This document shows positions 18,001-61,743 of a stretch of 64,000 nucleotides of DNA, one piece after another. A program made the translations under genes and the position numbers. The notes under the pieces are model-generated. The model saw only the letters and a list, made by a program, of their open reading frames with translations. It was not told the origin of the DNA and made no database searches. This DNA is from Eledone cirrhosa (lineage: Eukaryota). Every line of letters begins with the position of its first letter. The stretch's first letter is position 1. The stretch lies in the NCBI GenBank assembly GCA_964016885.1, contig OZ024740.1, positions 95,666,001 to 95,730,000 of the forward strand. The letters run 5' to 3'.

Positions 18001-20192
18001 ACACACATGTATACATATGTACATGTACTGTGTTTTTCACTAGACACTTTACAGTGAGTGTCCAGCTAGTCTGTATGTAACCAAACAGACGAACCGGGTT
18101 TTAGAGTCAAACGAGTTTTCAAGGAAACACACTTCCTCTATTCTCCAGAGAGCCAGACAGGAATATTGGACTAGTTTCGATGTTATTACATCTCATCAGC
18201 AATATAAACCCATCTTCCGGCTTCTCTAGAGAATTGTAAAAGCACATATCGTTATATGCTTTTTCTATGAAAATTAGTAGTGGGCAGACTAATTTGCATA
18301 GAACGTGAGTCATTGTACGCACCGGTTCAGCGGAAACGATAAAAACAGATAACGAAACGAAATTAAATATCGTTTCGCTTCCAACTCACTTTTGTATGAC
18401 TGACGCTTAAACAATTAAGTTCAAGTGTACATCTACATATGTATACGGAAGTACTAGTAGGCATATAAATACACACATGTATACATATGTACATGTACTG
18501 AGTTTTTCACTAGACACTTTACACTGAGTGTCCAGCTAGTCTGTATGTAACCAAACAGACGAACCGGGTTTTAGAGTCATACGAGTTTTCAAGGTAAAAC
18601 ACTTCCTCTATTCTGCAGAGAGCCAGACAGGAATATTGGACTAGTTTCGATGTTATTACATCTCATCAGCAAATAACCCATCTTCCGGCTTCTCTAGAGA
18701 ATTGTAAAAGCACATATCGTTATATGCTTTTTCTATGAAAATTAGTAGTGGGCAGACTAATTTGCATAGAACGTGAGTCATTGTACGCACCGGTTCAGCG
18801 GAAACGATAAAAACAAATAACGAAACGAAATTAAATTTCGTTTCGCTTCTAACTCACTTTTGTATGACTGACGCTTAAACAATTAAGTTAAAGTGTACAT
18901 CTACATATGTATACGGAAGTACTAGTATGCATATAAATACACACATGTATACATATGTACATGTACTGTGTTTTTCACTAGACACTTTACAGTGAGTGTC
19001 CAGCTAGTCTGTATGTAACCAAACAGACGAACCGGGTTTTAGAGTCAAACGAGTTTTCAAGGAAACACACTTCCTCTATTCTCCATAGAGCCAGACAGGA
19101 ATATTGGACTAGTTTCGATGTTATTACATCTCATCAGCAATATAAACCCATCTTCCGGCTTCTCTAGAGAATTGTAAAAGCACATATCGTTATATGCTTT
19201 TTCTATGAAAATTAGTAGTGGGCAGACTAATTTGCATAGAACGTGAGTCATTGTACGCACCGGTTCAGCGGAAACGATAAAAACAAATAACGAAACGAAA
19301 TTAAATTTCGTTTCGCTTCTAACTCACTTTTGTATGACTGACGCTTAAACAATTAAGTTAAAGTGTACATCTACATATGTATACGGAAGTACTAGTAGGC
19401 ATATAAATACACACATGTATACATATGTATATGTACTGTGTTTTTCACTAGACACTTTACAGTGAGTGTCCAGCTAGTCTGTATGTAACCAAACAGACGA
19501 ACCGGGTTTTAGAGTCATACTAGTTTTCAAGGAAACACACTTCCTCTATTCTCCAGAGAGCCAGACAGGAATGTTGGACTAGTTTCGATGTTATTACATC
19601 TCATCAGCAATATAAACCCATCTTCCGGCTTCTCTAGAGAATTGTAAAAGCACATATCGTTATATGCTTTTTCTATGAAAATTAGTAGTGGGCAGACTAA
19701 TTTGGATAGAACGTGAGTCATTGTACGCACCGGTTCAGCGGAAACGATAAAAACAAATAACGAAACGAAATTAAATTTCTTATCGCTTCTAACTCACTTT
19801 TGTATGACTGACGCTTAAACAATTAAGTTAATGTGTACATCTACATATGTATACGGAAGTACTAGTATGCATATAAATACAGACATGTATACATATGTAC
19901 ATGTAATGAGTTTTTCACTAGACACTTTACAGTGAGTGTCCAGCTAGTCTGTATGTAACCAAACAGACGAACCGGGTTTTAGAGTCATACGAGTTTTCAA
20001 GGAAAAACACTTCCTCTATTCTCCAGAGAGCCAGACATGAATATTGGACTAGTTTCGATGTTATTACATTTAATCAGCAATATAAGCCCATCTTCCGGCT
20101 TCTCTAGAGAATTGTAAAAGCACATATCGTTATATGTTTTTTCTATGAAAATTAGTAGTGGGCAGACTAATTTGCATAGAACCTGAGTCATT
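1..20192 (-). repeat. 469/470-bp tandem satellite (~43 monomers) with 2817-bp 6-mer higher-order repeat; each monomer carries a hammerhead ribozyme motif on the minus strand (retrozyme-like)
   Basis: GTCATTGT monomer starts at 1, 471, 940, 1409, 1878, 2348, 2818. Diagnostic variants recur every 2817 bp (same ORF variant at 281, 3098, 5915, 8732, 11549). The array runs off the left edge of the window. Confidence 0.97.
794..838 (-). ncRNA. Minimal type I hammerhead ribozyme (representative intact satellite copy)
   Basis: Minus strand reads TATATTG-CTGATGA-GATGT aata ACATC-GAAAC ta GTC-CAATATA: 7-bp stem I, canonical core, 5-bp stem II, 2-bp stem III inside palindrome ACTAGT, GUC triplet (predicted cut between 801 and 800). 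Confidence 0.9.
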
Positions 20193-21153
20193 TAATTTCG
20201 TTTCGTTATTTGTTTTTATCGCTTCCGCTGAACCGGTGCGTACAATGACTCACGTTCTATGCAAATTAGTCTGCCCACTACTAATTTTCATAGAAAAAGC
20301 ATATAACGATATGTGCTTTTACAATTCTCTAGAGAAGCCGGAAGATGGGTTATATTGCTGATGAGATGTAATAACATCGAAACTAGTCCAATATTCCTGT
20401 CTGGCTCTCTGGAGAACAGAGGAAGTGTGTTTCCTTGAAAACTAGTATGACTCTAAAACCCGGTAAAACCCGGTTCGTCTGTTTGGTTACATACAGACTA
20501 GCTGGACACTCACTGTAAAGTGTCTAGTGAAAAACTCAGTACATGTACATATGTATACATGTGTGTATTTATATGCATGCTAGTACTTCCGTATACCTAT
20601 GTAGATGTACACTTTAACTTAATTGTTTAAGCGTCAGTCATACAAAAGTGAGTTAGAAGCGAAACGAAATTTAATTTCGTTTCGTTATTTGTTTTTATCG
20701 TTTCCGCTGAACCGGTGCGTACAATGACTCACGTTCTATGCAAATTAGTCTGCCCACTACTAATTTTCATAGAAAAAGCATATAACGATATGTGCTTTTA
20801 CAATTCTCTAGAGAAGCCGGAAGATGGGTTATATTGCTGATGAGATGTAATATCATCGAAACTAGTCCAATATTCCTGTCTGGCTCTCTGGAGAATAGAG
20901 GAAGTGTGTTTCCTTGAAAACTCGTATGACTCTAAAACCCGGTTCGTCTGTTTGGTTACATACAGACTAGCTGGACACTCACTGTAAAGTGTCTAGTGAA
21001 AAACTCAGTACATGTACATATGTATACATGTGTGTATTTATATGCATACTAGTACTTCCGTATACATATGTAGATGTACACTTTAACATAATTGTTTAAG
21101 CGTCAGTCATACAAAAGTGAGTTAGAAGCGAAACGAAATTTAATTTCGTTTAG

Positions 21154-21160
<7 letters not shown>
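20191..21160 (+). repeat. Inverted block of ~2 satellite monomers terminating the array
   Basis: Reverse complement of the monomer starts at TTTAATTTCGTTTCG and ends at the same motif before (TA)n; contains a 10-bp duplication TAAAACCCGG at ~20454-20473. Confidence 0.95.
20352..20394 (+). ncRNA. Type I hammerhead ribozyme in inverted satellite monomer (second copy at 20831-20873)
   Basis: ATATTG-CTGATGA-GATGTAATAACATC-GAAACTAGTC-CAATAT is readable directly on the + strand. Confidence 0.9.
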
Positions 21161-21232
<72 letters not shown>

Positions 21233-21265
21233 GAGATCAAAAGATGGTTAAAGGAGTTCCATGTA

Positions 21266-21332
21266 TTTTATTATGCGCATTTCAAAAACAAACATCATCA
21301 TGCAATAATATTTGTGTTTTCATCAGATAAAA
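21266..21332 (-). ncRNA. Type I hammerhead in inverted tail of PLE A
   Basis: Reverse complement: TTTTAT-CTGATGA-(AU/GU-rich stem II)-GAAATGCGCATA-ATAAAA. Confidence 0.75.
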
Positions 21333-21724
21333 CAGGAGCACATGATATGAAGGCTAAAAAACACTTAAGGATAGTGCAGTTTATGAAAAGTAATTTTAGA
21401 TTGATGTGTAATATTGGGAAAATATTTTGTTTAGAGAGGGGGGCGTGGAAAGGATGAAAAAAAGGGGAGGTGATGAGAGTGAAGGTGGAGAGGGAGAGAC
21501 GGGTGATAGAGAGAAAGAGATAGTTTTTATAACTGAGAAAAGATATATGTTTTACATAGAGAGGTTGAAAACCGTTGGAAGATAATGTATAAATTAAAAG
21601 AATTTGAAAATTAACGAAGGGAAAAAATATGTACGAAGAAGGAGAGGGGGTTAATATGTATTGAGATTAAAAAGTTTGATGATAGAGAGAAAAGAATAAT
21701 GTATGGCGAAAAGAATAATGTATA

Positions 21725-23960
21725 CCAAAGAACATAACTTCCTCGATCATCTATATAATTCTAGAAGAAATCCTCCTTCGAACAAAAATCTAGTGCAATT
21801 CGAGGAACAGTTAACTACAATAATAAAAAATCTTAAATTCAAGAGATACCCTTACAAAGGACAAGAGCACCTTGTAAATCTCAAGAACACAATTTCTAAA
21901 CTAAATTCCTCAAAAAATGTTTTAGTCCACTCTGACAAAACCAATGACTTATATGGTATTTCCAAGGATAATTATAACAACCTTATCCTAAAGGAACTTA
22001 GGAAAAAGTATCGTAAAACCAGCCATGAAAATTTAGAATACATAAACCTTGAAGCCTCTGAGATTATGTCAAAACTTGGCATTGAAAAAAACACCGAACC
22101 ATTCCTCCCAAGAACTCCGAGGATAAATCTCAAGGATCACAAAAACAATTTTCGCACTGAACTACCTGTTAGATTAATCGCCCCCTCTAAATCTGATCTG
22201 GGGGTTGTTAGTAAAGCCATCTTGGATAGAATTATCCCACAGGTTAGTTCTAATTGCTCTTCTTTGAACCTAAATTTATGGTTTGGTTCTTATGAAGTGA
22301 TTGGCTGGTTCAACAAATTGAATAATAAAAACAAACTAAAATTTATTCAATTTGATATTGCCAGCTACTATTCCTCCATTTCGCCTTCACTTCTCAATAA
22401 TGCACTATCTTTCGCACTTAAATATTCTGACATCACCACAGATGAACTTCACATCATCCTCACCGCACGTAAAACCATCCTAGAGATCAACAACGAATAT
22501 TGGACCAGAGCCGATACCTCTAACAACTTCGACATCACAATGGGAGCATCCGATTCATCCCAATTGACTCATTTAATTCGTATCTTTATTTTGAACTCTT
22601 TGAGTCGGAAATTTCCTCAACTTCGCGGTGGAATTTATCGTTACGATGGACTCTTTACTATCTTAAATTGCAATATAGTTAACCTTAATATTATTAAGAA
22701 CAATATACGTAATCTCTTTAACCAACATAACCTAAAAATTGAATTTGATAACAGTATCAAACTAGCTTATTTCTTGGATGTATGTCTTAATCTTGACACT
22801 GGCCTATATTACCCTTACCATAAAAACAATGAGAACCTAAATTATGTTAACTTTAGATCTAACCATCCTACCAATATCAAGAATGCTATAGTTAGTAATA
22901 TTGGAAAAAAAATATCTAACATATCTTTTAATAAAAACATCTTTGATGCTAATGCCAATTACTATAATAACGCACTTTCTAAAGCCGGCTATCCTGATAA
23001 AATCAAATATAGTAAAGAAACAAATTCTAGAAAAACTTACAGTAGAATAATTAATCATGATCATTCCAATAACTTTAATAAAAGACCTAGATACAAAAAC
23101 ATAATCTGGTATAATGATCCTTTCTCCATCTCTATTAATAACAATATTCCTAAATTATTCTTTAGTGCCTTAAATAAATGCTTCCCTCCCTCACATATCT
23201 ATAGTCAAATATTTAACAAAAACACCATAACATTTTCTTATTCTACAACCTCCAATATTTCCAACATTATCTCTAAACACAACAATAAAATACTAAATAC
23301 TAAATCTCTTCCTTCCAACACTGAATTTCATAATAACAGTAATAGTACTCCCGACGTCATTCTAAACCCTAGGCTAATTTCTGTAAACCCAAATACAACG
23401 TCAATCACAACTTCGCTAAATGTTCATAATCCAACTCTAAATCAAGAAACTATTATTCCTATCGCAAACAACTTCTCCAATCCAATTCCTTCTATAGATA
23501 ACACTAGGTCACTCATTAATAATCTCTCTAATTGCAACTGCCGCATTAAAAATAAATGTCCTCTCAACAACCATTGTCTTGATAAAAACTTAATTTATGA
23601 ATGTAAAGTTATAACTAGCACAATTCCTTCACCTATTTTGGCTCCACTTCCACCTCTTTTAAAGCTCGTCTCTATAATCATGATTCATCTTTTAAATACA
23701 AACTTAAAAGAACCAACACGGCTCTCTCAGAACTCATATGGTCCTTGAAAGACAAAAACATTAAATATACCATCTTTTGGAAGAAGGTTTCTTCTGCGTC
23801 TCCATACTTGATCAGCTCTCTATCTAAAATCTGTAATCTCTGCCTAAATGAAAAATTTACCATTATCTCTAATCTAGATTCTATAATAAATAGACGTACA
23901 GATTTGTTTTCTATCTGCTTGCATAAATTCCATAAGACTTTTCACAAAGTATACAGCTAA
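21725..23960 (+). pseudogene. PLE A RT-GIY-YIG ORF, defective
   Basis: DKT motif, LKDHK..F, RLIAPSKS, FDIASYYSSI, ITMGASDS; catalytic YRDD mutated to YRYD; frameshift near 23625 before TYFGSTSTSFKARLYNH; C-terminus has CNLC and CLH. Confidence 0.9.
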
Positions 23961-24765
23961 TATTCAATTCTTTATCAATTTAGAATCTTTTCTCAAAGGC
24001 ACATATACATACACCTCTTTTAAAATATACCCATCTTCCTACCTTACTTCAAAGGTCTATAATACTTGTTTACGCATTACCCTCACTCTATCTTCAACTT
24101 GTAAAATCCTTCGTAACATATACATTTGTTTTTGACGCTAGATTATTCATCCTTAATTTATTATATTTTCTCCCCATCATCTAACTCATTCTTAATACAT
24201 ATTAACTCTTTCTTCGCACATATTATCAATTCCTTCAATATACAAACCTTAACTTCACATTATTTTTCTCAAATCCTTCAATACGCAAACCTTAATAATT
24301 TTTTTCTCCTCGTTAATTTTCAAATTTCTATAATACTTGTAAACATACACACAATTTTTTTTGACGTTAGAATATTCATCCGCAATACATTATTCTTTTC
24401 TCTCTATCATCAAACTTTTTAATCTCAATACATTTTAACTCCCTCTCCTTCTTCGTACATATTTTTTCCCTTCGTTAATTTTCAAATTCTTTTAATTTAT
24501 ACATTATCTTCCAACGGTTTTCAACCTCTCTGTTGAAACAATATATCTTTTCTCAGTTATAAAAACATTCTCTTTCTCTCTATCAACCATCTCTCCCTCT
24601 CCACCTTCACTCTCATCTCCTCCCCTTTTTTCATCCTTTCCACACCCCCTCTCTAAACAAAATATTTTCCCAATATCATACATCAATCTAAAATTACTTT
24701 TCATATGTTGATTTAAAACTGCACTATCCACAAGTGTTTTTTAGCCTTCATATCATGTCCTCCTG

Positions 24766-24832
24766 TTTTATCTGATGAACACGCAAATATTATTGCATGA
24801 TGATGTTTGTTTTTGAAATGCGCATAATAAAA
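24766..24832 (+). ncRNA. Type I hammerhead in 3' tail of PLE A
   Basis: TTTTAT/ATAAAA stem I, CTGATGA, GAAA, palindromic stem III ATGCGCAT, AUA triplet. Confidence 0.78.
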
Positions 24833-24955
24833 TACATGGAACTCCTTTAACCATCTTTTGATCTTATATATTATGTATACTCCAGTTCTACAAACTGTAG
24901 AGTGCTTCTTATCCGATATCTGCATCGCTTTATTGTACTACAATAAAACTCACCT

Positions 24956-25437
<482 letters not shown>

Positions 25438-27677: not shown

Positions 27678-27785
27678 ACATTTTACTAAATGTAATGTCA
27701 AAGACTAATTGTCAACAATAACCTTTGCATTTGCATTTTTATTCTATGTCCATACCTGCATTGTTTTGTCTTTATAAATACAAAC

Positions 27786-27860
<75 letters not shown>

Positions 27861-27861
<1 letters not shown>

Positions 27862-28735
27862 CGGCGATGAATCAGTTTTGCGAGGTTTTTTTATATGAAA
27901 TCATGTGTCGAAACAAATATTGTTATACTTAGGGAGGGTCATATTTGTGTAATATTGCCAGAATTAATAACAGAACACACTCACTGTTTGGTTGGTTTTC
28001 GCTTCTTGCCTCTGTGTCTTTTATATCGGTAATCTAACTTACTCGGTCCTCAATGTTGCCATTGACTGACCAACGGTCAACAATAATACAGATACAATAT
28101 AGACACAAACACATATATATAGTTTATCATAAATCTTTCGTTGCACATCTGCAACATCGTTAGTGGTGCTATATTTTCCTCCTGTTTTATTGTATGTCTA
28201 CGCCATTTTTATTCAGTCTGTCTATATATTTATTTATTTATTTGCTTGTTTGTTTATTTTGTTTTGTCTTCTTTGCGCATGCGTTTGCGTGTGTGTATAG
28301 TGTTTTGTTTGCTGTGTGATGGGTGACTAGTGTGTGTTTATGTGCTTGTTGTTATTGTGCTTGTGTATGTATTTATTTATTTATTTATTTTATGTTATTT
28401 ACTTATTTATACTTCTCTTAGGTCAGTGTTGTTTGTTTGGGTGTTGTTGTTATTCCATTCATTCTTTCTATTTAATCTTGGTCTTCTAATTTCTATTTCA
28501 CTGGCCTCTCTGATTTGCCTATCTGCTGGGTCATTCCTATGTTTAGATATTATTCTAATTTCTATGTTGTCTATGTTACCGTCATAAGATGTACAGAGGG
28601 TACTTGCAGAAACATGACAACAACATACGTATGTGAGATAGCTCGTAGCATAGGTGAAAGGATAGACCAACACTGGGGGGAACTAAAAGGACGAAAAAAC
28701 GGGTCAGTACTATACGAACATGCTAGACAACAACA
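27861..28735 (-). mobile_element. Truncated copy of PLE E family with 5' inversion
   Basis: 27861-28585 matches 61743-62507; 28583-28735 is the reverse complement of 62507-62659 (GIY-YIG segment). Confidence 0.9.
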
Positions 28736-28989: not shown

Positions 28990-30300
28990 CAGCGGCATGG
29001 AACGACAACATTAAAACTAGAATTAAAATTAAAAGTAAAATTAACATCAACATTACAATTAACTGCGACATTAACCCTAAGACCAGCATCATGTCTATCA
29101 TCCAAGTGGCAAATTAAACACCACGAATCGAATATCGGAAATCAACAATTTAAAATTTTAAAATTTCAAAATTTAGAAATTTCAAAATTTAAAATCTCAC
29201 ATATGGTTGTAGACCCAATCATACTTGTAATGAGTCGGCGTCCGCAAATTGGTGTGGTGGTGCTATTAAGGTGTTCTACGAGGTAGGCAACCTTTGATCT
29301 GTCTTTGCTATCGACTTTTGCTGTCATGCATTCATAGTTATGCTGTGTGCTATCGTGGTCCGATGCATGCGCTCCATCTGGTGTCGTGGTGCCGGTGTTG
29401 CGCTACGTAGATCAATTCGGTATCCCTAGGGCGGAGAGCGAGCATTTACATTGGTGTCTGCATTCCATGATGATTTATGACTTGAGGTTGGCTGCGTTGC
29501 CCTTAAGTGATATTATCTCCATAGCCTCGGACAGGCATAACTTGCACTTCCTTTCTGCAGCCTAGTACGCATTTGCATCTGTACATTACTCCAGCTGATG
29601 TCCAATTATATATGCCACTCTCTTTGAGTCTCCATACTAAGTCCTCCAACATGGTGGAGTGTCTCTTGTTCCTGTCCTTGAACCAGCTCTTGTGGTTGTA
29701 CATCCTCGACTTAAAAGACATGGATGTAGTTCCGATGTATGAGTGCCTATCGCTGTGCGTGATTAACCACACATATGTAGACAACGCCCTTAGTCAGGCA
29801 CTTTTCCTGCAGGTGGCACTCCTCAAGGGCACGGTATTTACATGTCCAAGCATCATTTTTGTAAATCCCGTCCATGGTCCTGGCGTCTTATTTGGGTTCT
29901 CAAAGGTCCTCGAGTGGTGCTCCGGCGGAGTGGTCGACTCAGTGTTCACCACCAGCTGGTCCCTGCTGGCAGGTATAGGGCCCTTCGCGGCCGCGGCTTT
30001 GCCCCCAGGCACATCCCCAGAACCATCAGCCTCCTCCGCGTGCCACCTCGCAGACCCAAAACCCCCCGCCCACGGTGGTGCCTGATCGTCGTGCCCGTTG
30101 GATGTCATCAATTTCAACGATTTGGTCCTGGCTATGTAGTTTGCCATGTTGGGTGCCATGGAAAATGAGAACTTCACGGTGTATCGGTTGAAAATGTTGT
30201 GGTACCTGTGTGAAGCCGGGAAACTCTCGTCCAATGCCCTGAAGAAGAGACCTGGCACGTTAGTGCGTCCATGCTTCGAGTAGGCGTCATTAAACCATAT
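28990..30300 (-). mobile_element. Degenerate 3' fragment of a Hydra-type-like PLE
   Basis: FFRALDESFPASHRYHNIFNRYTVKFSFS; SYIGTTSMSFKSRMYNHKSWF; LVWRLKE, homologous to PLE A/B. Frameshifted; left boundary approximate. Confidence 0.82.
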
Positions 30301-30323
30301 TACGTTTCTAGATCTATTCGTCG

Positions 30324-30366
<43 letters not shown>

Positions 30367-30446: not shown

Positions 30447-33299
30447 TACGTTGTATAGGGCGCAAAACCTTTACTGTTATGTTTACAGAACAACACTATA
30501 ACGTCATTTATATAGTAATCATACCTGCCTCAAAAATATTTCTAAAATCGTTTTACTTGGACATTTAATGACGAATTTTTATAATGATAAGTAGCTAAAT
30601 AATGGTATATAAATTAAATAATTTATCATAGAATGAAGATGTTACATAACGTTGATTTGATTTTCAGTAATATGCTACACCTATATGCAGACGTATTATA
30701 TACAACAATAACTGGACTACGGAGTAATATATATATATTGTTATTATCTGAAATGCCATATAGTCAATTTTCTTTTTCAACCCACTATATTTGTCTGACT
30801 GCATGTCTTCCTTTTTATTATATAGTATAGTATACACGGTTTCCTTTTCCTCTAGCATTATTACACTGAGATTAATTTGAAATGTTCATCTCTGAGAGTT
30901 ACTTTGGATAACACCTTGTTATAGTAATTTTCGACATATTAAGGTATCAAAATTAAGATATCATATCAACTAAAATATAGTGGGATATTTATAGAAATAA
31001 ACTAAATCATACTATACATGTGTACGCATGTTAGAGTAGTGTAGTATGCTTGCATTGTATTTGTATACCCTCATAGCATATCTGATTTAGAAGTTCTATT
31101 AAACATAGTAGAAACTTAACCGACCCTTTTAAGCACAGACTACATTTCTCGACGATGTATCACTTCTTTTTTCCCAGAGAACAACTATATAATATATGTG
31201 GGCCATAGGGGCCTTTATAATAACACAATATATTGATAGTGTATATGCATACGAGAGACTAGCTATCATTTTCTATAACTCGGACATCATGTGACATATT
31301 CGCAGTAGCTATTTAAGGAAATGTATCCGTAATTAGTGACAATCAATCACACATCACTGATGATAGATAAACACCCAGAAAAAGCTAGCATTCTCACCAC
31401 TATTGTTATAGCTGTGACATATTCACAGCTTTAAAATATAGCGCGACTCATGAATGTTTATTACGCATACACTTTGGTATTGATTAGGAGATTTGTAATG
31501 GAGTTCTCATAAATATATATTTAATATTGTTATCAAAGTTCTCCCAATATTTAGTTTCTTAAATGATATATTGAAAGTATTTTGGTAACATTCATAAAGG
31601 CCTTTTAAGAAACAATCCAATAAAAATCATCTGAAATTATAGAAAATAGAATATAAAAGGAAAGTAAGACTTTATTATGGTGCGAAATAGAATAAAAAAT
31701 ATATATTTGTACATTTGCTGAATGGTACTTTGAAGTAATTGTTATTTAATTACCCAAATTACAAAATAGCTTCATATATAACATTTCAGATGCAATATTT
31801 TAAACCTACTTCGATTATTTTTAATAATTACCTGCATGTAATAATTTAAGTAAGCACTATATTTTGCATTAACCATTTCTATTTTCATAAACCAAATGTA
31901 AGCATATTGCCAAATATATATTTCTTTTTTTCACGTAAATATACCAATATGTATGAGTAGCTATTCAAAGAGAATAAAATTACCGCTTCTTAGAAGTAAT
32001 TTTGATTTCTTCTCAAGTACTGTATAGCAATTTTTCACAAAAATAGATTTAATGAAAAGAAATATCAATCAGATTTTTCATCTCATCGTGTTTTTCTTTC
32101 TTTTTGTTTTATAGATATAATTTCTACCATCGACAGAATGCAACGCAACAAATAGAGACTGTAAACAATTATATCATTGCAAATAAAAGATTCATACGAA
32201 TATTGGGAATAATGGAAAATAAAGTAATCTGGACATAATTCGAACCTAGAAACATAAGGCATCTTGCAGGGCCTGTTAATTTGCCAATCTGATATTTATG
32301 TCAATACACTTTTCGTGTAAAGTCTCTCTTGAATAATTCAGATTAAACATGAAAGAAATTGAGGGTCACGTAAAGATTTGCAGGGCTCTCGCTATGTAAT
32401 GTGACTCCTACATAGTATTAAATCTAAAGCACCATCGAAATAACTGCAAAAGTATGTCCAGTGCCAATGTCTGCCAAACCAAGATAAAAGAAAGCAACTA
32501 TTCAGGCAAGATAGACATTATAGAAATATATCTCTAAATTTTGAGTTACAACATTTCATGAATCATACATTTCTAGACAGAGATTTAACACAAAATGATA
32601 TACGGGCTGTATTTATTTAAACAACCTGAATAAATATAAAATGTACCCTATACAATTTAATGTATTTCCGATTATGAGAAGAATGTTATATGGAACTGTT
32701 TATTTGCTGGTTTTAGACTTTTCATGTTTGAAAATTGTTATAAAAAGTGAATATGATAAATTCCCCTTCACAAAAATCGAAATAGGTTCAATGATAATGA
32801 ATCTATCAGATTATTGATACAATTATGTCAACATGTTTGTCAAAATATCACTCATTATTTTGTGTATGACTTAACTTAATGATATTTTACATTCGTTGGA
32901 TTGGCGTTGGAAAACTGTAGACAATGGAATCCTTATGACATCTGATGTTTTGATTGATTCTAGGATTAAATCAGATGCAATCAAATATATTTCCAAGAAA
33001 TATAACAATTTATAATTTGATTCTTTCTCATAGAAGTTAGATTCTTTCTCGTGTAATATGGTCTGAACTAGAACATACTTACAGCAACCTTCATTTTAAA
33101 GCTTTTCAGTACAATCGTAAGTAGCACAGTCTGTAAGATTTCACTACAATTATTCTCTAGTTCTTCGTCTTTCTCTTGCTTGATGAGGCCGGGGTCGTAC
33201 TTAAGCGTGCATAGAACGAACCAGGACCACCAACGCCCTATATCGCGGCATCTTCCAGGTCGACCCTCAGAGATCTTCCCTGAGGAGATCAAGCCATTT

Positions 33300-33540
33300 G
33301 GTGCAGAAAAGTATAGGACATGACCGTACAAGCGCATGCGGTGGATAGCTATGAATCGGGGAGCTGTAGGCTGATGCTTGCGCGCACGCAACAGTTCCTT
33401 GCAAACATGATGGTGCCATCTGATGTGTTTGATGGTCTTCAAAGCTCTGATATCGAATTTGTCAATCCTCGTTGCTGAAGTATTTGTGAGGGACCATGTA
33501 CATGCTGATAACGTTGCCATTGATATCCTTCACCAGATAT
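33300..33540 (-). pseudogene. RTE-type LINE ORF2 C-terminal remnant
   Basis: TWSLT..TRIDKFDIRALKTIKHIRWHHHV...RMRLYGHVL matches the RTE post-RT consensus pattern (ETWTL..RLDAF..RCLRRIL.I.W..RRLRW.GHV). Confidence 0.65.
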
Positions 33541-41737: not shown

Positions 41738-41897
<160 letters not shown>

Positions 41898-41951
41898 TTA
41901 AAAAATAATGAATAAAACAATGAAACAGTTCCTTATATTAAACAAAAAAAG

Positions 41952-42105
41952 TTCATTATTTAACGATCGTTTCTAGGATATATATGTGTTAGAATTGGCA
42001 TGCATATTCAACAGATCTATGTACAAAATTATACAAAATTATACAAACTATCAAAATTAAATATACATACCAACACATATATATGCCGTCTTCAGAAATA
42101 ATGAA
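41952..42105 (-). ncRNA. Type I hammerhead with very long stem II (PLE C tail)
   Basis: Reverse complement of the copy at 53112-53264. Confidence 0.75.
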
Positions 42106-42930
42106 ATATATTTATTGATAATAACAACAATTCAAAATTACAGGTCTGTTTGGGAACAGAGTTCAAATTGACCAATGAAAACACAAAAAGTTTATACAGT
42201 TAGGTGTGTGTATATATGTAAGTAACTTCGTTCACAGATATGCATAAAAATATATATGTTCACATGCATACGCATGCCGAAATGATGTATGTAAATACAA
42301 AAATTCAAGGCTAATGTCTCTGTATGTTTATAATCTACAGATAAAATACGTATACGCATATAAACATATAAATATAAAAATAAATATATACACACATTCA
42401 TATACTCACACATATACGTACATTCACACACACTCGCGCGCATACGCATAAACATACACACAACCACGAACATACATACACACACACACCCCCACACACA
42501 TATATGTGTATATACTATTATCATAAGCATATGGACATTAATGCGCGCACATAAACACTGCCACACATATTTAGATCCAGATACAGAAAGTAGGTTAGGG
42601 GGGGGGGAGAAGAGGTCAGTATTTAGCGGTGTCAGCAAACTGCCTATTTATAAATGTATCTATAAATTTAGAAATAAAAAGAAAAAGAAAAAAGAAATAT
42701 ATTAAGAAAATATATATATATATATAGTATTAGTTATACTATTTATGGTTATGTAAACACAAAACCTTAAGCAGTTGTAAGTATTTTACACACACCCTAA
42801 ATAGTGGTAGGCAGTAAGGTATTACTACCTTATTACCAGTAAGTTAAGTAGCTCAATGTAAAAACATCAGATGATTTACAGAGCAGTTATATGAAATATA
42901 AGAATCAAAGAACTGTTCAAAACATTATTG

Positions 42931-42977
42931 TGCTTACAGCTGTTTCCTCCAAACCGAGGTTTGGATTCTTCGGAGCA
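42931..42977 (-). ncRNA. Type I hammerhead, U4C core variant (PLE B tail); the copy at 46944-46990 (+) has GAAA>GAAC
   Basis: TGCT-CCGAAGA-aTCCAAACCtcGGTTTGGAg-GAAACAGCTGTA-AGCA; palindromic stem III ACAGCTGT, GUA triplet. Confidence 0.7.
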
Positions 42978-44413
42978 ATTTATTAATGCATGGACAGTTA
43001 TATGACCTCCTTTTCAGCCGAGAGACATACCAAATACATATTCAAACATTGATACATATTCAAACATTGTGGGTCAACATTCATTACAGAATTTAGAGTG
43101 GCAGTACACACTTCGAGATTACATTTATATTACAATCAAAAATCAAAGATATAGGTTAAAGTACAACATGAAGATAAGTGGTTATATAGTGCAAATGTTA
43201 TATGTGTGGCACGCATGTGCGTCTTGTTTATATAGTGTGGCAGAGAGATATGTGTGGTAGAGGCACTTAGGTAGGTAAATAAGAGTGTTAGGTTGGTAGG
43301 TCTGGTGGCAAAGTCTTTATATGATTGATATAGTCTGTGTGTGGAGAAATATTATAAGCATTAAAGATAGTGCAAGCATTAAAAGTGTTATAAGTATTGG
43401 AGATGCACAGCGCAGGGATGTCAAGTAATTCATGTACTTCGGCATTTTCATGGTCAAGGGAGTGTATATTTCGATTATATGCCTTTCACATAATCCACGA
43501 CAATCCAGTTAGAGATCGTAGTCTGGTGTTCTTTAGTTCGATACAGGAGGTTGTTACGTTTCGAGAAACGCCATTGAATACCGGAAGTGTGTGTGTGGCT
43601 AAGGGGAGTTAATGCATGCGGGGAGGTAACTCTGGGGTTTCTATATCTAGCCATTAAAATGTGTCCCAATATAGACCCTAAATTCTATGGTGAGGTGCAC
43701 CTTCCAAGAGAGACTTTTAAAGCATAAAGTGTACTAACTATAGAGTAGTTTAACTAAATTATGCTGAAGGTGATCATATTATTATTAAGGTGGATTAACC
43801 CATCTTAAGGTGCTACAAATGGAAATTATAGATGATGAGCGAGGATTCTAAATTAATGATCTCTGTGGTTGTAGTCTGCTCATATGACCAGGCGCGGTGA
43901 TTGCAGGATTGCTTCAGGACCCAATGATCTGTGGTAAGATCTGGGTCATCGCTTGCTACATTGGATGTCGAAAGATAATCGTCCCCAGGCAGGCCAAAGG
44001 TCAATCCGCAGTCCTCGCGACCCCTCTCTGACCGTCAGATCATCCATATACGTACAACCCGCACGGCAGTTGCATTGCATTCACTCACTGCGCTCAGCAG
44101 CCCGGTCCTACTGGTCAACAGCGCTACTCGATTAAATCATTTTACATCTGTCTAAGGAAGGTGTTTCCTCTGCCCAACACCATCCAACCGATCAATTCAT
44201 GCTCAAATTACCCTTAGAGCGGTGTAGTGCCATCAAGTGGGTGGATGTTGTCACACCTGCCGTAGAGGTATAAATGGGTATTTTCCCTGCGAAGGGTTCC
44301 AGAGGGATGTCGTTGTTTGTGTTATAATGGATCAGCTAGTGTTGGGTATGTAGTATAGGGTGTGTTTCTGGTGTTTGATGCTAGATGTGGTGTTAGGTTC
44401 CAGTCCGACATTG

Positions 44414-46258
44414 CTATATATAGGGCTTAAAGTTTTGGAAGGAATGTCTGAGGCGGTGCGGGCAAGTTGCAAACACCTCAGATTTTTTGTTAAGTAGGTT
44501 ACGGTTGGAGAAGATAATATTGTGTGTCTCTAGTATACAGAGGTTACAGAATTTATTAGGTGGTTTGTACGAGGTCGCGCTGCCTATCACTTCCCATTTG
44601 AGTGTGTATGGTTTATTTTTAGATTTTAGATAGTGTATGTAGCTAGAAAGTGAGGTGGAGTTGGCTAGGCTGTGCTTTTTGAACGAGTGGATGTGCGAGT
44701 TATATCTGATTTTGAAGCAGTTAGAAGTGGAGCCTACATAGGTTTCTGAAGAGTTATTAGTCGTGACTGTGCATGAGTATATGACATCCTTGGTTAGGCA
44801 TTTTTTATCTAAAGGGCAGGTTCTATTAGCTCTACAGTTACAATTATTCTGTGCGTTAGTCCGCTGGTTATAATGCAATGCGGAAGTCTGTGTGGTGGAT
44901 ATAGGATTTTGGGTGTTCGGGTTGGCAACCCTGGTGTTATTACTTATACTAGTGTTATTTCTATTGTTACTGCCGTTGCTATTGTTGCTTGCTACAGTGG
45001 TATTTAGAGGGTTTGCATCCTGTTGTGATTTTGTTTGTTGGAAGTAAGAACTAATTTTACTATTATTGCTGCTAGCTATGTGGTATGCTAAGTTAGGCGT
45101 CGTAGAGTATGAGATTTTAATGGTGTTTTTGTTTAAGAGGTTGTGGTACTTGTGTCCTAGAGGGAAGTTTTTATCTAGTAGTGAGAAGAAAGCCCTAGGT
45201 ATGTTGGTGGAGACATTTAGGTTGAAAGGAGGGTTGAAAAATGTATTATTTCTTCTTCTATTTTTGCTTTTAGTGTTTGGTGTGTTGCTTCCTCCTAAGG
45301 CCTCACAGTAGTTTCCATGGTAATGGTTACTTCCTGTGGCACCCTCCGCTTTGGTGTACTTGTGGTTGCTATTCCTATTATTAGATTTCCTCATGGACAT
45401 GTTGTGCGAGATTATGTTGTAGCTATGTGTTTTCTTAGGTAGGAACTCAATTTCTATATTATGGCCGGAGCTAGCTAATGCTTGATTGTAATATTGTGAG
45501 TTTTTGCTAAATATGTTTGCGTCATAGGACAGACTAGAGATTCTATTGGACACCCCCTTAGAGATAGAGTTTAATATTGATCTAGGGTGATTAGACTTGG
45601 TATCTACGTAAATAAGTTTCTCATTAGGCTTATGGAAAGGTGTATATATTTTTGAGTCTAGGTATAGTGTGGCGTCTAGGAAGTTAACATTTTTAGTGTT
45701 TTTGTCCATGGTGATACTAAGGTTAAAGTTTTTGAATGTCTTATGCAGTTGTTTTCTAGTTCTTTCTATATTAAATTGTTTATATTCTATGAGTAGAAGT
45801 GCATCATCGCGGTACAAACCACCGTTGAGGTAAGGGAGGTCTTTATGGATTTCATTGAGGAGGTATAGGCCGACCAAATCAGTGACCTGCGCCGAGTCAC
45901 TAGATCCCATGGTTATGTCGAAGTTGTTGTGCGTATCCTTGCGTGTCCATAGTTGGTCCTCGAAGGTGATTATGGTTTTACGGGCCGCAAGGATGACATC
46001 AACCTGGGCTCTAGTCAGGTCGCTATTGGTCGTGGCCATGATAAGTGCCTTATTTAATAGGATAGGGGAAATAGAGGTGTAGTATGAATTGATATCAAAT
46101 TGAATAAATTTTTTGTTCTTATTATTCTTGATATCCTTAAACCATTCAATTACTTCACCCGTATTTCCCCATTGTTTAAGGTGTATCTTGTGTTTAATTT
46201 GTGGGATGATTTTATCCAAAATCTTCTTGCTGATAATACCAATGTCGGACTTGGAAGG
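44414..46258 (-). CDS. PLE B reverse transcriptase + GIY-YIG endonuclease, uninterrupted but N-terminally truncated
   Basis: FDINSYYTSI, ITMGSSDSAQVTDLVG, YRDD, NFLD, SNHP, CNCRANRTCP, VIY..TYVGSTSNCFKIRYNSH, CNLC..E, LLNK..E..CPH. Confidence 0.92.
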   Translation of the reverse strand, partial: PSKSDIGIISKKILDKIIPQIKHKIHLKQWGNTGEVIEWFKDIKNNKNKKFIQFDINSYYTSISPILLNKALIMATTNSDLTRAQVDVILAARKTIITFEDQLWTRKDTHNNFDITMGSSDSAQVTDLVGLYLLNEIHKDLPYLNGGLYRDDALLLIEYKQFNIERTRKQLHKTFKNFNLSITMDKNTKNVNFLDATLYLDSKIYTPFHKPNEKLIYVDTKSNHPRSILNSISKGVSNRISSLSYDANIFSKNSQYYNQALASSGHNIEIEFLPKKTHSYNIISHNMSMRKSNNRNSNHKYTKAEGATGSNHYHGNYCEALGGSNTPNTKSKNRRRNNTFFNPPFNLNVSTNIPRAFFSLLDKNFPLGHKYHNLLNKNTIKISYSTTPNLAYHIASSNNSKISSYFQQTKSQQDANPLNTTVASNNSNGSNNRNNTSISNNTRVANPNTQNPISTTQTSALHYNQRTNAQNNCNCRANRTCPLDKKCLTKDVIYSCTVTTNNSSETYVGSTSNCFKIRYNSHIHSFKKHSLANSTSLSSYIHYLKSKNKPYTLKWEVIGSATSYKPPNKFCNLCILETHNIIFSNRNLLNKKSEVFATCPHRLRHSFQNFKPYI

Positions 46259-47029
46259 CCATTTTAATGGCTAGATATAGAAACCCCAGAGTTACCTCCC
46301 CGCATGCATTAACTCCCCTTAGCCACACACACACTTCCGGTATTCAATGGCGTTTCTCGAAACGTAACAACCTCCTGTATCGAACTAAAGAACACCAGAC
46401 TACGATCTCTAACTGGATTGTCGTGGATTATGTGAAAGGCATATAATCGAAATATACACTCCCTTGACCATGAAAATGCCGAAGTACATGAATTACTTGA
46501 CATCCCTGCGCTGTGCATCTCCAATACTTATAACACTTTTAATGCTTGCACTATCTTTAATGCTTATAATATTTCTCCACACACAGACTATATCAATCAT
46601 ATAAAGACTTTGCCACCAGACCTACCAACCTAACACTCTTATTTACCTACCTAAGTGCCTCTACCACACATATCTCTCTGCCACACTATATAAACAAGAC
46701 GCACATGCGTGCCACACATATAACATTTGCACTATATAACCACTTATCTTCATGTTGTACTTTAACCTATATCTTTGATTTTTGATTGTAATATAAATGT
46801 AATCTCGAAGTGTGTACTGCCACTCTAAATTCTGTAATGAATGTTGACCCACAATGTTTGAATATGTATCAATGTTTGAATATGTATTTGGTATGTCTCT
46901 CGGCTGAAAAGGCGGTCATATACCTGTCCATGCATTAATAAATTGCTCCGAAGAATCCAAACCTCGGTTTGGAGGAACCAGCTGTAAGCACAATAATGTT
47001 TTGAACAGTTCTTTGATTCTTATATTTCA

Positions 47030-47350
47030 TATATATATATATATATATATACATACATATATATATATATATAAACAAGTAAAATATAAAATATACATCG
47101 ATATACATACATATACATATATATATATATATATACATATATATACACATACATATACATACACATATACATAAACACATACATACACATACATATACAT
47201 ACACACACCATATAAATACACATACACATACACGCACGCATACATATAGAGACACATACATATACACATATAAATACATAGACATATACACATATACACA
47301 CATATATATATAAACATACACACATACATATATATATATATACATTCACA

Positions 47351-47400
<50 letters not shown>

Positions 47401-47486
47401 CTACACACATATATAAACACACTCATGTATATACACACATACACATACATACCCACACATATATATATATATATATATATACATAT

Positions 47487-47561
<75 letters not shown>

Positions 47562-47623
47562 CATACACACATATACACATACACGTATACAAACATATAT
47601 ATACACATACACACACACATATA

Positions 47624-47670
<47 letters not shown>

Positions 47671-47938
47671 TATACATACATACACACACATACATACTCA
47701 TACATAGACATACATATATACACACATACATATACGCATATATACACATACATATCCATGTATGCGTATATACATACAAACACCACCACACGCTCACACA
47801 ACTCAGACATACATAAATAAAGGGATATACATACACATATATACATATATAAATAGAGATACATATACACATATAAATATATACACACGTACACACACAC
47901 ACACACATACACATACATACACACATACATATATATAT

Positions 47939-48001
<63 letters not shown>

Positions 48002-48099
48002 CATATATATAAAAAAATAAAGAAATAAAAGAAATAAATAAATAAATAAATTAATACACACAGTCAGACAAATATGCCCACACATACATATACACATAT

Positions 48100-48142
<43 letters not shown>

Positions 48143-48182
48143 CATATACATACATATATATATACACATAGGCACATCAACT

Positions 48183-48222
<40 letters not shown>

Positions 48223-48341
48223 TCACATATACATGCGCACATACGTACATATATACACATACACACATATACACATAGACGTATACATGTGCATACATAT
48301 ACATACTCACATATACCCACATAAATACATAGATACATATA

Positions 48342-48386
<45 letters not shown>

Positions 48387-48420
48387 ATAAATATATATAT
48401 ACACACAATCATACACCCTT
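47030..48420. repeat. Complex TA/CA low-complexity region within the PLE C tail (47030-48055 mirrored at 51445-52510)
   Basis: Mixed TA/CA/TACA runs with shared unique anchors such as CACCACCACACGCTCACACAACTCAGAC. Confidence 0.9.
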
Positions 48421-49055
48421 ATTTACATGCGCACATTTGTATTTTTATACCCACATACAAACACCCAAACATACATACCTACCTACATATACATACATAC
48501 ATCCACGCTTACAAATACAAATAATAATAGGGGGGAGGGGGGAGGGGATTATAGTAAATATAGGTTTCAAGAAACATAGAATATTAATCTGCATTTAGAT
48601 CATAATATGTGTTTACATAGTAGTTTCAGTATTAGGAAATGTAAGAAAGAAGGCAAAATTATGCATTTTAATATAAGTAGACTATTAATTATAGGTTAAC
48701 TAAATTAAAGATAGTTAATATATTGTTTTCTAAGGTGTATACTACTTAGGTTTATAATATTTGAAGCGGAATTTTGAAGTTAAATAGTAGTAGAGTATTA
48801 ATTATAGTATAACTAAATTAAAATTATCAACGTTATGGTATCAATATTAGGAAATGAATTTAGTAATAGGGAAAAAAACAAATAAAGTATTACATCGGTA
48901 GTAGAATATAAATTATAGGTTAACTAAATTAAATATGATATATTAATTTCTATAGTATATGTTAACTAGGTTTATAATAACTAAAACAGATATTGTATTT
49001 TATCTATAGTAGAATATAATTATAGGTAAACAGAAATTAAAATTAATACATACAC

Positions 49056-49158
<103 letters not shown>

Positions 49159-49652
49159 TATACATACATATACATATTTTTTCAAAACTTGCAAAGAATA
49201 TATTAACTAGGTATGCATCCAAAACCTATCTCAGTCTATGATTACATGACACTCTGCAATCCATCTGTATTAGGATATTAATTTTAAGCCAATTAAATTA
49301 AATTTTTAGGTTAACCAAATTTAAAACCAAATTATAAATATATTTCTAAAATGTACATTAATTAGGTCTATAATATTAAAAATTATTTCTCTGTCATTGA
49401 ATACACGATATTTTGTTATATTTTATCTGTAAAGGAATTTTAATAAAAATATTTTAATAAAAGGTTAAATAAATTAAAATTAATCTATAAATTAATTTAC
49501 GAAGTATATATTAGTAATATTTAAAAGTTTTTCACAATTTATGATTACACAATATTTTATAATCTCATCTGTAGTAGAATTTTAATTAAATTAAATTTAT
49601 AGGTTAACTAACATTTAAATTAAATTATATATTAATTTCTAAAATAATGTTA

Positions 49653-51445
49653 TTAATTAGGTTTATAATATTTAAATGTTTTTCTAAGTTTATGATTACA
49701 CGATATAATTAATTCCTGTCGTTTATTTAATAGGATATCCTTAGATTTCATTATTTCAAATAGTTCTTGGGAACATAATCTACATTCATTTCTATTATTT
49801 TGATAAGGGGTGGCTCTTTTGAGCACACTCCAGGTCATATCATATTCTATATTCTTATTTTTATAACTATTGATTTTTTCTGCTAGAGATGTTGTATTAG
49901 CCAGTGCGACATTTTTAAAACTATGTTTGTGGGTATTAAACCTTACCTTAAAATTGTTAGAAGTAGCTCCTATATATGAGCAAATATAATCTTTAGTTTT
50001 AACATTACATTTATAAACTATGTTGTTAACAAGACAATTTCCTTTTAATGGGCAGTTTGCTTTGTTTCTACAGTTACAACCTTTCGTTAATTCTGTATTT
50101 GAGGAGATATTATGGTTAGTTTGGTGGTATACTTATGGTATTCTTACATTTATATGCATTATAGGCACTTATATTTTGTTTTATGTTATTTGTTGTTGAG
50201 TATGAGAATTTAACTGTAGACCTATTTAAGATTTGATGGTATTTGTGGTTTGGCGGGAAGTTTTTCTCTAGGATATAAACAAATTTTTTAGCAATATTAT
50301 CCTTAATTTGTAAATTAAATGGAGCATTATACCAAGTAACTCGTCTATTACGGTTTCTATGTTGTTTATTATTTTTATAGGTTGTATCGTGATGTTTACT
50401 AGGAGGATTAATGTTAATGATCTCACCACGCACATTTTTAGTTAGATTTGTAGATTTAGATGTTTTATCTTGTTTATTAGGAGTTTTATTATTAACATTT
50501 ATTAGAGTTGTATGATGAGTAGTTTTTTGAAAGTTACTATACTTTATATTAGAAGAGTTGTTGGTATTTTGGGGTATAGTGTGGGTGGCATTTAGGTGTG
50601 TACTTTTCATTTGGTGTTTGGTGGTAATATTAGGTTGTATGTTTATAGTATTTTTAGTAGAAGGTATATATTCTAATCTATTTTTGTGGCCACTTCTATC
50701 TAGAGCTTCGTTATAGAAGGTCGCATTTTTATCAAATACATCTTGGTTAGAAGAAAGGTTAGAAATTCTAAGTGATATATTATATGCAAGGTTTTTAAGG
50801 ATAGATTTAGGGTGATTAGATTGTGAGTGTATGTAGTGTAAGTTTTGGTTGGGTTTATGGTAAGGTTGGTAGATACCCGTAGCTAAGTCTAAAGTTATAT
50901 CTAGGAAATTTACTACTTTACTTGTTTTTTCAAAAGTAATATGAAAACTATAATAGTCTTTAAGGAAAGTTCTAATATGCTTTTTTTTTTTTTATATTTC
51001 TGAAAGGCTAAGGTTGTTGGAAAGAAGAAGACAGTCATCACGATATAAACCACCTTTAAGGTGGGGGAAGGAGGCATTTATGTTGAAAAGGAGAAAGAGG
51101 CCCACAAGATCAGTAATTTGGGCGGAATCGCTTGAACCCATAGTAATATCAAATAGATTACTATATGTGTTTCTGGTCCAGTATTCATTCTGAAATTCAA
51201 TAAGTGTTAGTCTAGCATGTGTAATAATATTAATGTCATCCAAAGTTAAGTTAGATCTATTTTTAGCAAATATCAATGCTTTGTTCAAGAGTATAGGTGA
51301 TATAGAAGAATAGTAATTATCTATATCAAATTGTAGAAATGAAGCAGAAGATTTACATCTAATATTTTTAAACCAGTTAATTACCTGGGAAGTGTTTTCC
51401 CAGAGTGGTAAAATAACGTGTTTTCTTATTTGTGGGATGACTCTA
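49653..51445 (-). pseudogene. PLE C RT-GIY-YIG ORF, disrupted and 5'-truncated
   Basis: RVIPQI, ITMGSSDSAQITDLVG, YRDD, NFLD, SNHP, CNCRNKANCP, SYIGATSNNFKVRFNTH, CRLC; frame breaks at ~50992 and ~50116. Confidence 0.9.
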
Positions 51446-51498
51446 TTAATTTATTTATTTCTTTATTTATTTTATTTCTTTATTTTTTTATATATATG

Positions 51499-51589
<91 letters not shown>

Positions 51590-51879
51590 ATATATATATG
51601 TATGTGTGTATGTATGTGTATGTATGTGTGTGTGTGTGTGTACGTGTGTATATATTTATATGTGTATATGTATCTCTATTTATATATGTATATATGTGTA
51701 TGTATATCCCTTTATTTATGTATGTCTGAGTTGTGTGAGCGTGTGGTGGTGTTTGTATGTATATACGCATACATGGATGTGTATGTATGTGTATATATGC
51801 GTATATGTATGTGTGTATGTATGTGTGTATATATGTATGTCTATGTATGAGTATGTATGTGTGTGTATGTATGTGTATA

Positions 51880-51914
<35 letters not shown>

Positions 51915-51979
51915 TTATTATATGTGTGAGTGTATGTGTATATATATCTTTGTATATGTGTATGTGTATATGTGTGTAT

Positions 51980-52029
<50 letters not shown>

Positions 52030-52111
52030 ATATGTATATATATATATATATGTGTGTGGGTATGTATGTGTATGTGTGTATATACATGAGTGTGTTTATA
52101 TATGTGTGCAG

Positions 52112-52165
<54 letters not shown>

Positions 52166-52370
52166 TGTGAATGTATATATATATATGTATGTGTGTATGT
52201 TTATATATATATGTGTGTATATGTGTATATGTCTATGTATTTATATGTGTATATGTATGTGTCTCTATATGTATGCGTGCGTGTATGTGTACGTGTATGT
52301 ATATGGTGTGTGTATGTATATGTATGTGTATGTATGTGTTTATGTATATGTGTATGTATATGTATGTATA

Positions 52371-52423
<53 letters not shown>

Positions 52424-52474
52424 GTATGTATATCGATGTATATTTTATATTTTACTTGTTTATATATATATATA

Positions 52475-52514
<40 letters not shown>

Positions 52515-53111
52515 CTTAATATATTTCTTTTTTCTTTTTCTTTTTATTTCTAAATTTATAGATACATTTATAAATAGGCAGTTTACTGACACCGCTAAAT
52601 ACTGACCTCTTCCCCCCCCCCACCTACTTTCTGTATCTGGATCTAAATATGTGTGGCAGTGTTTATGTGCGCGCATTAATGTCCATATTCTTATGATAAT
52701 AGTATATACACATATATGTGTGTGGGGGTGTGTGTGTGTATGTATGTTCGTGGGTGTGTGTATGTTTATGCGTATGCGCGCGTGTGTGTGTGAATGTACG
52801 TATATGTGTGAGTATATGAATGTGTGTATATATTTATTTTTATATTTATATGTTTATATGCGTATACGTATTTTATCTGTAGATTATAAACATAAAGAGA
52901 CATTAGCCTTGAATTTTTGTATTTACATACATCTTTTCGGCATGCGTATGCATGTGAACATATATATTTTTATGCATATCTGTGAACGAAGTTACTTACA
53001 TATATACACACACCTAACTGTATAAACTTTTTGTGTTTTCATTGGTCAATTTGAACTCTGTTCCCAAACAGACCTGTAATTTTGAATTGTTGTTATTATC
53101 AATAAATATAT

Positions 53112-53264
53112 TTCATTATTTCTGAAGACGGCATATATATGTGTTGGTATGTATATTTAATTTTGATAGTTTGTATAATTTTGTATAATTTTGTACATAG
53201 ATCTGTGAATATGCATGCCAATTCTAACACATATATATCCTAGAAACGATCGTTAAATAATGAA
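53112..53264 (+). ncRNA. Type I hammerhead with very long stem II (inverted tail of PLE C)
   Basis: TTCATTATTT/AAATAATGAA 10-bp stem I; CTGAAGA; ATATATATGTGTT/AACACATATATAT and GGTATGTATATT/AATATGCATGCC in stem II; GAAACGATCGTT. Confidence 0.78.
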
Positions 53265-53460
53265 CTTTTTTTGTTTAATATAAGGAACTGTTTCATTGTT
53301 TTATTCATTATTTTTTTAATATATTATCTTGACTCTGTATTCCGTTTATCTTTCACCGAAAGTGATTTTTCATTGCATCTCTTCTTTCCATGATGTCCGG
53401 ATTACATTGAGTTCTTCATACGGATTGGACACTACCGTAAACTCTTGGTAGATTTATCTA

Positions 53461-53461
53461 C

Positions 53462-57134: not shown

Positions 57135-60608
<3,474 letters not shown>

Positions 60609-61626: not shown

Positions 61627-61680
<54 letters not shown>

Positions 61681-61697
61681 AAAATAACAAAATGAGA

Positions 61698-61742
<45 letters not shown>

Positions 61743-61743
<1 letters not shown>

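Follow-up and report, generated by a model that had tools for sequence, protein, structure and literature searches.

A 65-kb hammerhead-repeat satellite of Eledone cirrhosa probably founded by a two-armed Penelope-type insertion

A stretch of 64,000 nucleotides of the Eledone cirrhosa genome (assembly GCA_964016885.1, contig OZ024740.1, positions 95,666,001 to 95,730,000; hereafter the window, with positions counted from its first base) begins with a satellite that ends in an inverted block on a (TA)n tract, next to Penelope-like elements (PLEs) with the same architecture. The question raised by this locus is how such an array was founded. A preliminary description, made from the letters alone, had proposed seeding by PLE-mediated retrotransposition into a TA tract, possibly with rolling-circle copying of a circular RNA, and had suggested that the far end of the array and the other genomic loci of the monomer be inspected.

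The repeat unit is 469-470 bp long, with 43 tandem copies inside the 64-kb window, and its numbering starts at the base after the predicted hammerhead cleavage site (unit position 1). A type I hammerhead motif is located on the plus strand at 20351-20395, with a stem I of 6-7 bp, a stem II of 5 bp and a minimal palindromic stem III, and its cleavage is predicted after 20388. Plus-strand copies are found in the inverted block at 20358 and 20837 (second core at 20837-20867) and those of the main array lie on the minus strand, in agreement with the leftward ribozyme sense described previously. The core is intact in 118 of the 139 array units and has 3,237 exact matches genome-wide, one paired double change in stem II was detected among haplotypes, and the unit fold is far more stable than that of shuffled sequences (z -8.6). 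The unit matched the Rfam model Hammerhead_HH9 below the gathering threshold (E 2.6e-5), with no hit in the Rfam search at gathering level. No protein frames of at least 150 aa are present in 1-21200, and the layout is purely tandem, without LTRs. The repeat is, from its sequence, a non-coding hammerhead repeat of the non-LTR retrozyme class, with predicted cleavage, transcription and circle formation. A 12-nt motif at unit position 339 (20258-20269 and again 20737-20748, plus strand) is a candidate promoter element, as it matches an element located at about -79 to -67 in three distinct U6 promoters of the genome, among 20 U6 loci compared. The chance of this match in simulated units was 0.00065 for a motif picked after viewing the data, and local alignment of the U6 upstream regions with the unit was weak alone (best p 0.01-0.04, uncorrected). 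A tandem cluster of about 30 U6 genes with a spacing of about 1.8 kb was observed at G000:C19:31.78-31.84 Mb (L203-L213, L216-L220).

The array consists of two arms joined head to head. The long arm occupies 1-20192 of the window on the minus strand (43 of its 139 units), starts at about unit position 325 at the junction and, with 60 kb fetched to the left of the window, reaches 65,207 bp. Its far end is located at G000:C1:95,620,986, 45 kb left of the window, also on (TA)n, at unit position 231, which corresponds to the short end defined below. The inverted arm (20190/20193-21167, plus strand, 975-978 bp) includes unit positions 271/274-470, a 479-bp unit and unit positions 1-300 (196+479+300), and its outer end at 21167, unit position 300, is the long, tailed end, also on (TA)n. 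It is the outward-pointing block of about two monomers described earlier, and the (TA)n target tract on which it ends (21168-21232) is common to the inverted arm of the neighbouring element PLE A. Both arms meet at a microhomology of 3 nt (ATT, 20190-20192), followed on the plus strand by an unpaired spacer of 51 bp (20193-20243, unit 274-324), and the paired segments 20244-21167 and 19277-20192 are 97.2% identical (888/914). The arms of about 0.9 kb, the spacer and a 10-bp duplication, which is held by the 479-bp unit, were thus all found as previously reported. The 0.9-kb palindrome and its spacer simply result from two arms made of the same tandem unit having been joined. A 69-nt tail (21099-21167, plus strand, unit 232-300) lies between both fixed ends and contains a 25-nt hairpin (21129-21153, unit 262-286). 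Both ends of the inverted block had been placed in this hairpin; this holds for the inner end (unit 271-274, at the hairpin top) and fails for the outer one (unit 300, 14 nt beyond). What defines the array ends is a pair of fixed sites on either side of the hairpin region, and not the hairpin itself.

Array units differ by 1.4% from the array majority and by 2.6% pairwise. Nearest-neighbour units recur at lags including 5, 6, 7, 9, 12 and 28, which reveals higher-order blocks that were therefore duplicated after the insertion, and much of the 65 kb is likely to have arisen through later local block duplication. The array majority differs from two dispersed loci at 2-3 sites and the top derived allele reaches at most 48 of 138 units, which suggests several founder units or an early expansion; founder clusters number 21-54 depending on the threshold. 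The far end of the array is also flanked by the end of a Neptune-like PLE type.

A census of the family has been carried out to place these ends in context. A genome search with a single unit yielded 867 first-look candidates, 34 of which were scored. The exact pattern of the long end followed by TA had 1,983 matches genome-wide (0 for the control pattern) and a narrow short-end pattern had 159, a count not comparable with that of the long end; the repeat occurs at about two thousand genomic places. In addition to the 34 scored loci, 60 regions from the first 62 long-end matches (one already in the sample and two sharing a region) and 40 from the first 50 short-end matches were sampled. Segmental duplicates (L100 of L099, L144 of L143), the second copy in L162 and chains shorter than 60 bp were left out of the counts. 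In total, 136 insertions including that of the window were parsed, at 132 distinct loci. Two arms were present in 89 of them, always head to head (89/89), with both ends typed in 76, one odd end in 9 and 4 running off the stretch. The 47 one-armed insertions comprise 36 with a single arm only, 4 that run off the fetched DNA and 7 with a further mini-arm, complementary in 7/7.

Long ends (n=110) are located at 297-300, 108 of them at 300, and short ends (n=100) at 225-232, so that the two fixed 3' ends lie 69-75 nt apart and the tail is on one side. The doubly typed insertions paired a short with a long end in 75 of 76 cases, with no long/long pair and one short/short pair (L155), the odd end of which is not on TA; among loci not chosen by end type the pairing was short/long in 19/19. 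The array here obeys this rule, with the 231 end on the long arm and the 300 end on the inverted arm. At least two unit subfamilies share the same two ends, one with about 95% identity to the copy in the window (51 two-armed loci) and the other with about 86% (20 two-armed loci); the subfamily survey spans L031-L170. The proposed seeding of the array by a PLE-type insertion into a TA tract is backed here by the far end, which lies on (TA)n at the other fixed site, and family-wide by the 200 of 210 typed ends on TA and by the uniform head-to-head orientation. Other configurations were observed at single loci. In L101 and L149 the second arm is replaced by an inverted duplication of about 30-36 bp of flank that brackets the TA tract, and the one-armed L111 has a direct repeat of about 27 bp of non-TA flank at its two sides, resembling a long target-site duplication. 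In L048, L170 and L121 a retrozyme arm lies head to head with one from a different PLE family, which is the Neptune-like E2 in L048, E in L170 and that of PLE A in L121, where an unrelated piece of 143 bp intervenes; the outer ends of these mixed insertions are of complementary type in 3/3, which fits both co-insertion and deletion between neighbours. The mixed loci were rejected as an identification of the partner PLE, because three different families are joined and deletions between neighbours are possible.

The two arms of an insertion share one haplotype. At informative sites, defined as positions polymorphic among loci, the arms of one locus differ by 0.21%, compared with 2.7% when other loci of their subfamily are the reference, and the within-locus difference was the lower one in 52/52. 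Divergence within arms is similar to that between arms in most of 14 long loci, and multi-unit arms therefore mostly date from the insertion. The cleavage site was passed at least once by 174 of 205 arms, which excludes a cut linear monomer as the template. One edit recurring in every unit is the expected outcome of copying a monomer circle, and the variant spectrum has been analyzed in this respect, leaving out alignment-unstable unit positions (about 18-27, 141-180, 319-332 and 429-434). Rare variants fixed in all units (at least 3) numbered only 23, a small number, and included 12 A-to-G in the ribozyme sense and 3 T-to-C, versus 22 A-to-G and 32 T-to-C among 300 singleton variants (Fisher p 1.6e-7). 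The 12 fixed A-to-G came from 10 of 21 loci and 6 of them were present in both arms; under looser filters A-to-G accounted for 23/60 fixed variants and 42/462 singletons. The 5' neighbour of the fixed A-to-G was U in 9/12 and G in 0/12, a pattern that matches the ADAR preference. Since the arms have opposite orientations in the genome, homogenisation at the DNA level would not be expected to produce a bias tied to ribozyme sense. The rolling-circle copying that had been offered as a possibility thus gains indirect support from the A-to-G variants fixed in all units. These variants may also have been inherited from a uniform source array; the argument needs no more than a one-unit bottleneck at some generation.

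The alternative that survives best, considered unlikely, is that the same PLE two-site priming acted on a linear multimer, uncut or cut in part, that had been transcribed from uniform arrays, with no circle copied. Five rare variants are common to both arms in some units only, and four of these keep the same register when counted from the 3' ends; a linear multimer, or later conversion, would explain this more readily than a monomer circle. Also in its favour, 5' ends are about twice as frequent as expected at unit 1-25, on the first, second and third passage; stops immediately past the cleavage site are compatible with some of the templates having been cut and linear. In the portions of the published work covered, the PLE protein PAc uses unprocessed RNA in vitro (PMC11167929) and minimal metazoan hammerheads are reported to cleave poorly (PMC4209133). 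However, edits of a multimer should sit in single units, and it is the locus-fixed variants and not the singletons that show the A-to-G excess; furthermore, the internal difference is 0.00% in loci with 8 and 11 units (L098 and L087). Period-2 and period-7 variant patterns were observed in one arm of L045, L131, L132 and L051, and may correspond to dimer templates or later duplications.

The inner ends and junctions bear on how the second arm was made. Among 75 junctions, 39 have a microhomology of at least 2 nt, 17 are blunt or share 1 nt and 19 contain insertions. Inner ends, plotted against a doubled unit reference, are scattered, with an excess at unit 251-275 (20 vs 8.2 expected) and 1-25 (22 vs 11.1) among 19 bins; with only a 2.4-fold excess at 251-275, a family-wide rule that the hairpin sets both ends was discarded. 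The inner ends of the two arms are separated by at most 25 nt in 14/75 loci (8.1 expected, p 0.03). This proximity would favour a self-primed fold-back copy of the first cDNA as the source of the inverted arm, with the tail left by endonuclease resolution, an origin proposed for rotifer Penelope (Arkhipova 2013, PMC3846280, portion covered) that also accounts for the shared haplotype and has a counterpart in the flank fold-backs of L101 and L149. Such a copy would be contained in the first arm, and only 3 of 75 loci (L076, L086 and L089) have arms neither of which contains the other, so that most tests are hidden by the tandem unit. Those three loci, together with PLE C, in which the tail is borne by the short arm and absent from the long body, stand against the fold-back. 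Containment was moreover found both ways (28 loci with the short-end arm only within the long-end one and 13 with the reverse), so that the copy would need to stop at the end left unused by the first arm, whichever that was, and the fold-back is regarded as very unlikely. The view that this is an ordinary satellite in which the DNA was inverted or the assembly folded back, its PLE likeness being due to chance, deserves almost no credence, since, although higher-order blocks are typical of unequal exchange and the junction is known from the assembly alone, both array ends fall on the two fixed sites of the family, the inverted units carry private variants and 88 other fetched two-armed insertions with the same layout refute it, along with the read chimera that the preliminary description had considered.

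Three neighbouring PLE insertions, assumed to be those named A, B and C in that description, do share a body, an upstream inverted 3' copy and TA flanks. The Hydra-type PLE A (21219-24957, plus strand) has the DKT and CxCX5C motifs, an inverted arm at 21219-21708 without tail, a body at 21700-24957 with a tail of about 80 nt and a hammerhead-like motif at 24772-24826. PLE B (42727-47033, minus strand, CxCX5C) has a body at 46270-42727 with a tail of about 160 nt and an inverted arm at 46260-47033, 99.6% identical and without tail, and is nested in a TA tract within the long 3' region of PLE C. PLE C (41889-53461, minus strand, CxCX5C) has a body at 51450-41889, interrupted by PLE B and without tail, and an inverted arm at 51427-53461 with a tail of about 135 nt. 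One arm only is tailed in each of them, as in the retrozyme. DKT was seen in PLE A, and in PLEs B and C this region is lost by truncation; the three elements are assigned to the Hydra clade by motifs and (TA)n insertion. Pfam gave no match to six PLE frames apart from one RVT_1 below threshold, in the frame at 57 kb.

Comparison of the unit with the window PLEs and 30 family-C loci gave only TA-rich matches and one neighbouring retrozyme copy, and no partner PLE with a shared pLTR or 3' end was found among these elements. A further family (61641-64000, minus strand, and 27773-28735), with a C-terminal endonuclease and a CX4CxxC linker on which our putative Neptune-like assignment is based, is two-armed in both copies. 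Its hammerhead motif occupies 62016-62047, and its two fixed ends, 58 nt apart, follow this motif at about 215 and 273 nt, a spacing nearer to the 231/300 of the retrozyme than that of PLE A, which is only a pointer to the partner. The layout shared with PLEs A, B and C does not by itself name them as the partner, because no sequence is shared and the Neptune-like neighbour has the same two-end layout. Other observations on the PLEs concern microsatellites in the 3' region of PLE C, common to other family-C copies; open frames reaching 828 aa in copies of family C; a GC-rich broken PLE-like element of another type at 57174-58865 (plus strand) with a weak RVT_1 and a GIY-YIG-like frame; a further Hydra-like fragment at 29794-30366 (minus strand); a short frame at 33068-33529 (minus strand) that resembles by eye the end of a LINE protein; and locus L183, in which the family-C 3' region is followed by a TA tract and directly by what is presumably the 5' end of 18S rRNA.

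The family resembles the metazoan non-LTR retrozymes described in the covered portions of Cervera and de la Pena 2020 (PMC7229834) and the preprint of Li, Clavereau and Pollet (10.64898/2026.07.22.740005), with non-coding, low-GC tandem units of a few hundred bp, a type I hammerhead with a short palindromic helix III in each unit, and both dispersed and arrayed copies. PLEs are proposed there as the mobiliser, on the basis of a shared ribozyme, co-occurrence and pLTR similarity. The two-armed insertions, paired fixed ends and edit marks found here do not appear in the portions covered of those papers; the pLTR relative, in turn, was not found here among the window PLEs and 30 family-C copies, and a search of sequencing runs listed no RNA run containing the present repeat. 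A literature search by titles and abstract openings, with subscription papers thinly covered, retrieved no PLE footprints or edit marks for animal retrozymes; supplementary figures of PMC7229834 (S9) and PMC8557442 are possibly relevant to novelty.

Endonuclease-bearing PLEs are described, in the portion covered of Craig 2021 (PMC8557442), as having an inverted 5' copy, a one-sided tail and (TA)n targeting, with DKT, a CxCX5C linker, a C-terminal endonuclease and (TA)n insertion in the Hydra clade. According to the part covered of Frangieh 2024 (PMC11167929), a PLE protein cuts and extends both strands, starting at two internal sites between which the tail lies, and a dimer is predicted. As in those insertions, a 5'-truncated body adjoins an inverted 5'-truncated copy here and two start sites are used; in contrast, there is no ORF here, the tail is 69-75 nt and not 30-40, the arms run through many units and the one-tail rule has been counted (75/76). 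The non-autonomous Chlamys PLEs such as MRC1, in the same portion of PMC8557442, are likewise non-autonomous, PLE-moved and present as multicopy head-to-tail insertions, but lack canonical hammerheads and are similar to their partners at the 3' end, neither of which is true here.

Twin priming of L1 also yields a head-to-head joint, as here, from primers on both target strands, with the second primer at a chance internal site and two parts that do not overlap. Both arms here start at fixed sites of one 3' region and copy the same sequence, and classical L1-type twin priming was rejected for that reason.

Taken together, the head-to-head arms, paired fixed ends, TA flanks, shared haplotype, cleavage-site read-through, fixed A-to-G variants and later blocks are read from the sequence, and the array is probably one two-armed hammerhead-repeat insertion, primed by a PLE at two fixed sites, probably on a circular template, and grown later by block duplication. 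Movement of the retrozyme by a PLE-type mechanism appears almost certain, use of the two fixed start sites on one template very likely, and a circle the most likely template with good confidence. The unit RNA would be transcribed, self-cleaved, circularised and edited by ADAR. The PLE endonuclease would nick both strands of a (TA)n tract, and one 3' end would prime at 300 and the other at 225-232, each start site being used by one of two active sites. Both cDNAs would run round the circle, truncate and join head to head at a microhomology, and the array would afterwards have grown through local block duplication. Against this scheme stand the lack of a sequence-sharing partner among the PLEs compared, the nine two-armed loci with one non-standard end and the 36 single-armed insertions. 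A bolder version, entertained tentatively and at slightly less than even confidence, is that in a concerted reaction a Penelope-type enzyme pair grips one ADAR-edited circle at the tail, starts at the two fixed sites, rolls from both ends of the TA break and seeds satellites of tens of kb; the mixed insertions would then mean that one pair can also carry two different RNAs.

The element class is already known, and this family is a further member with mechanistic evidence. The portions of the literature covered leave open how animal retrozymes move and why PLE insertions have inverted copies with a tail on one side. The family offers countable genomic footprints for both retrozyme movement and the one-sided tails of PLEs, and names an RNA, two start positions and a target for in vitro work. 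It also illustrates how one retrotransposition event can grow into a satellite of 65 kb that contains higher-order blocks.
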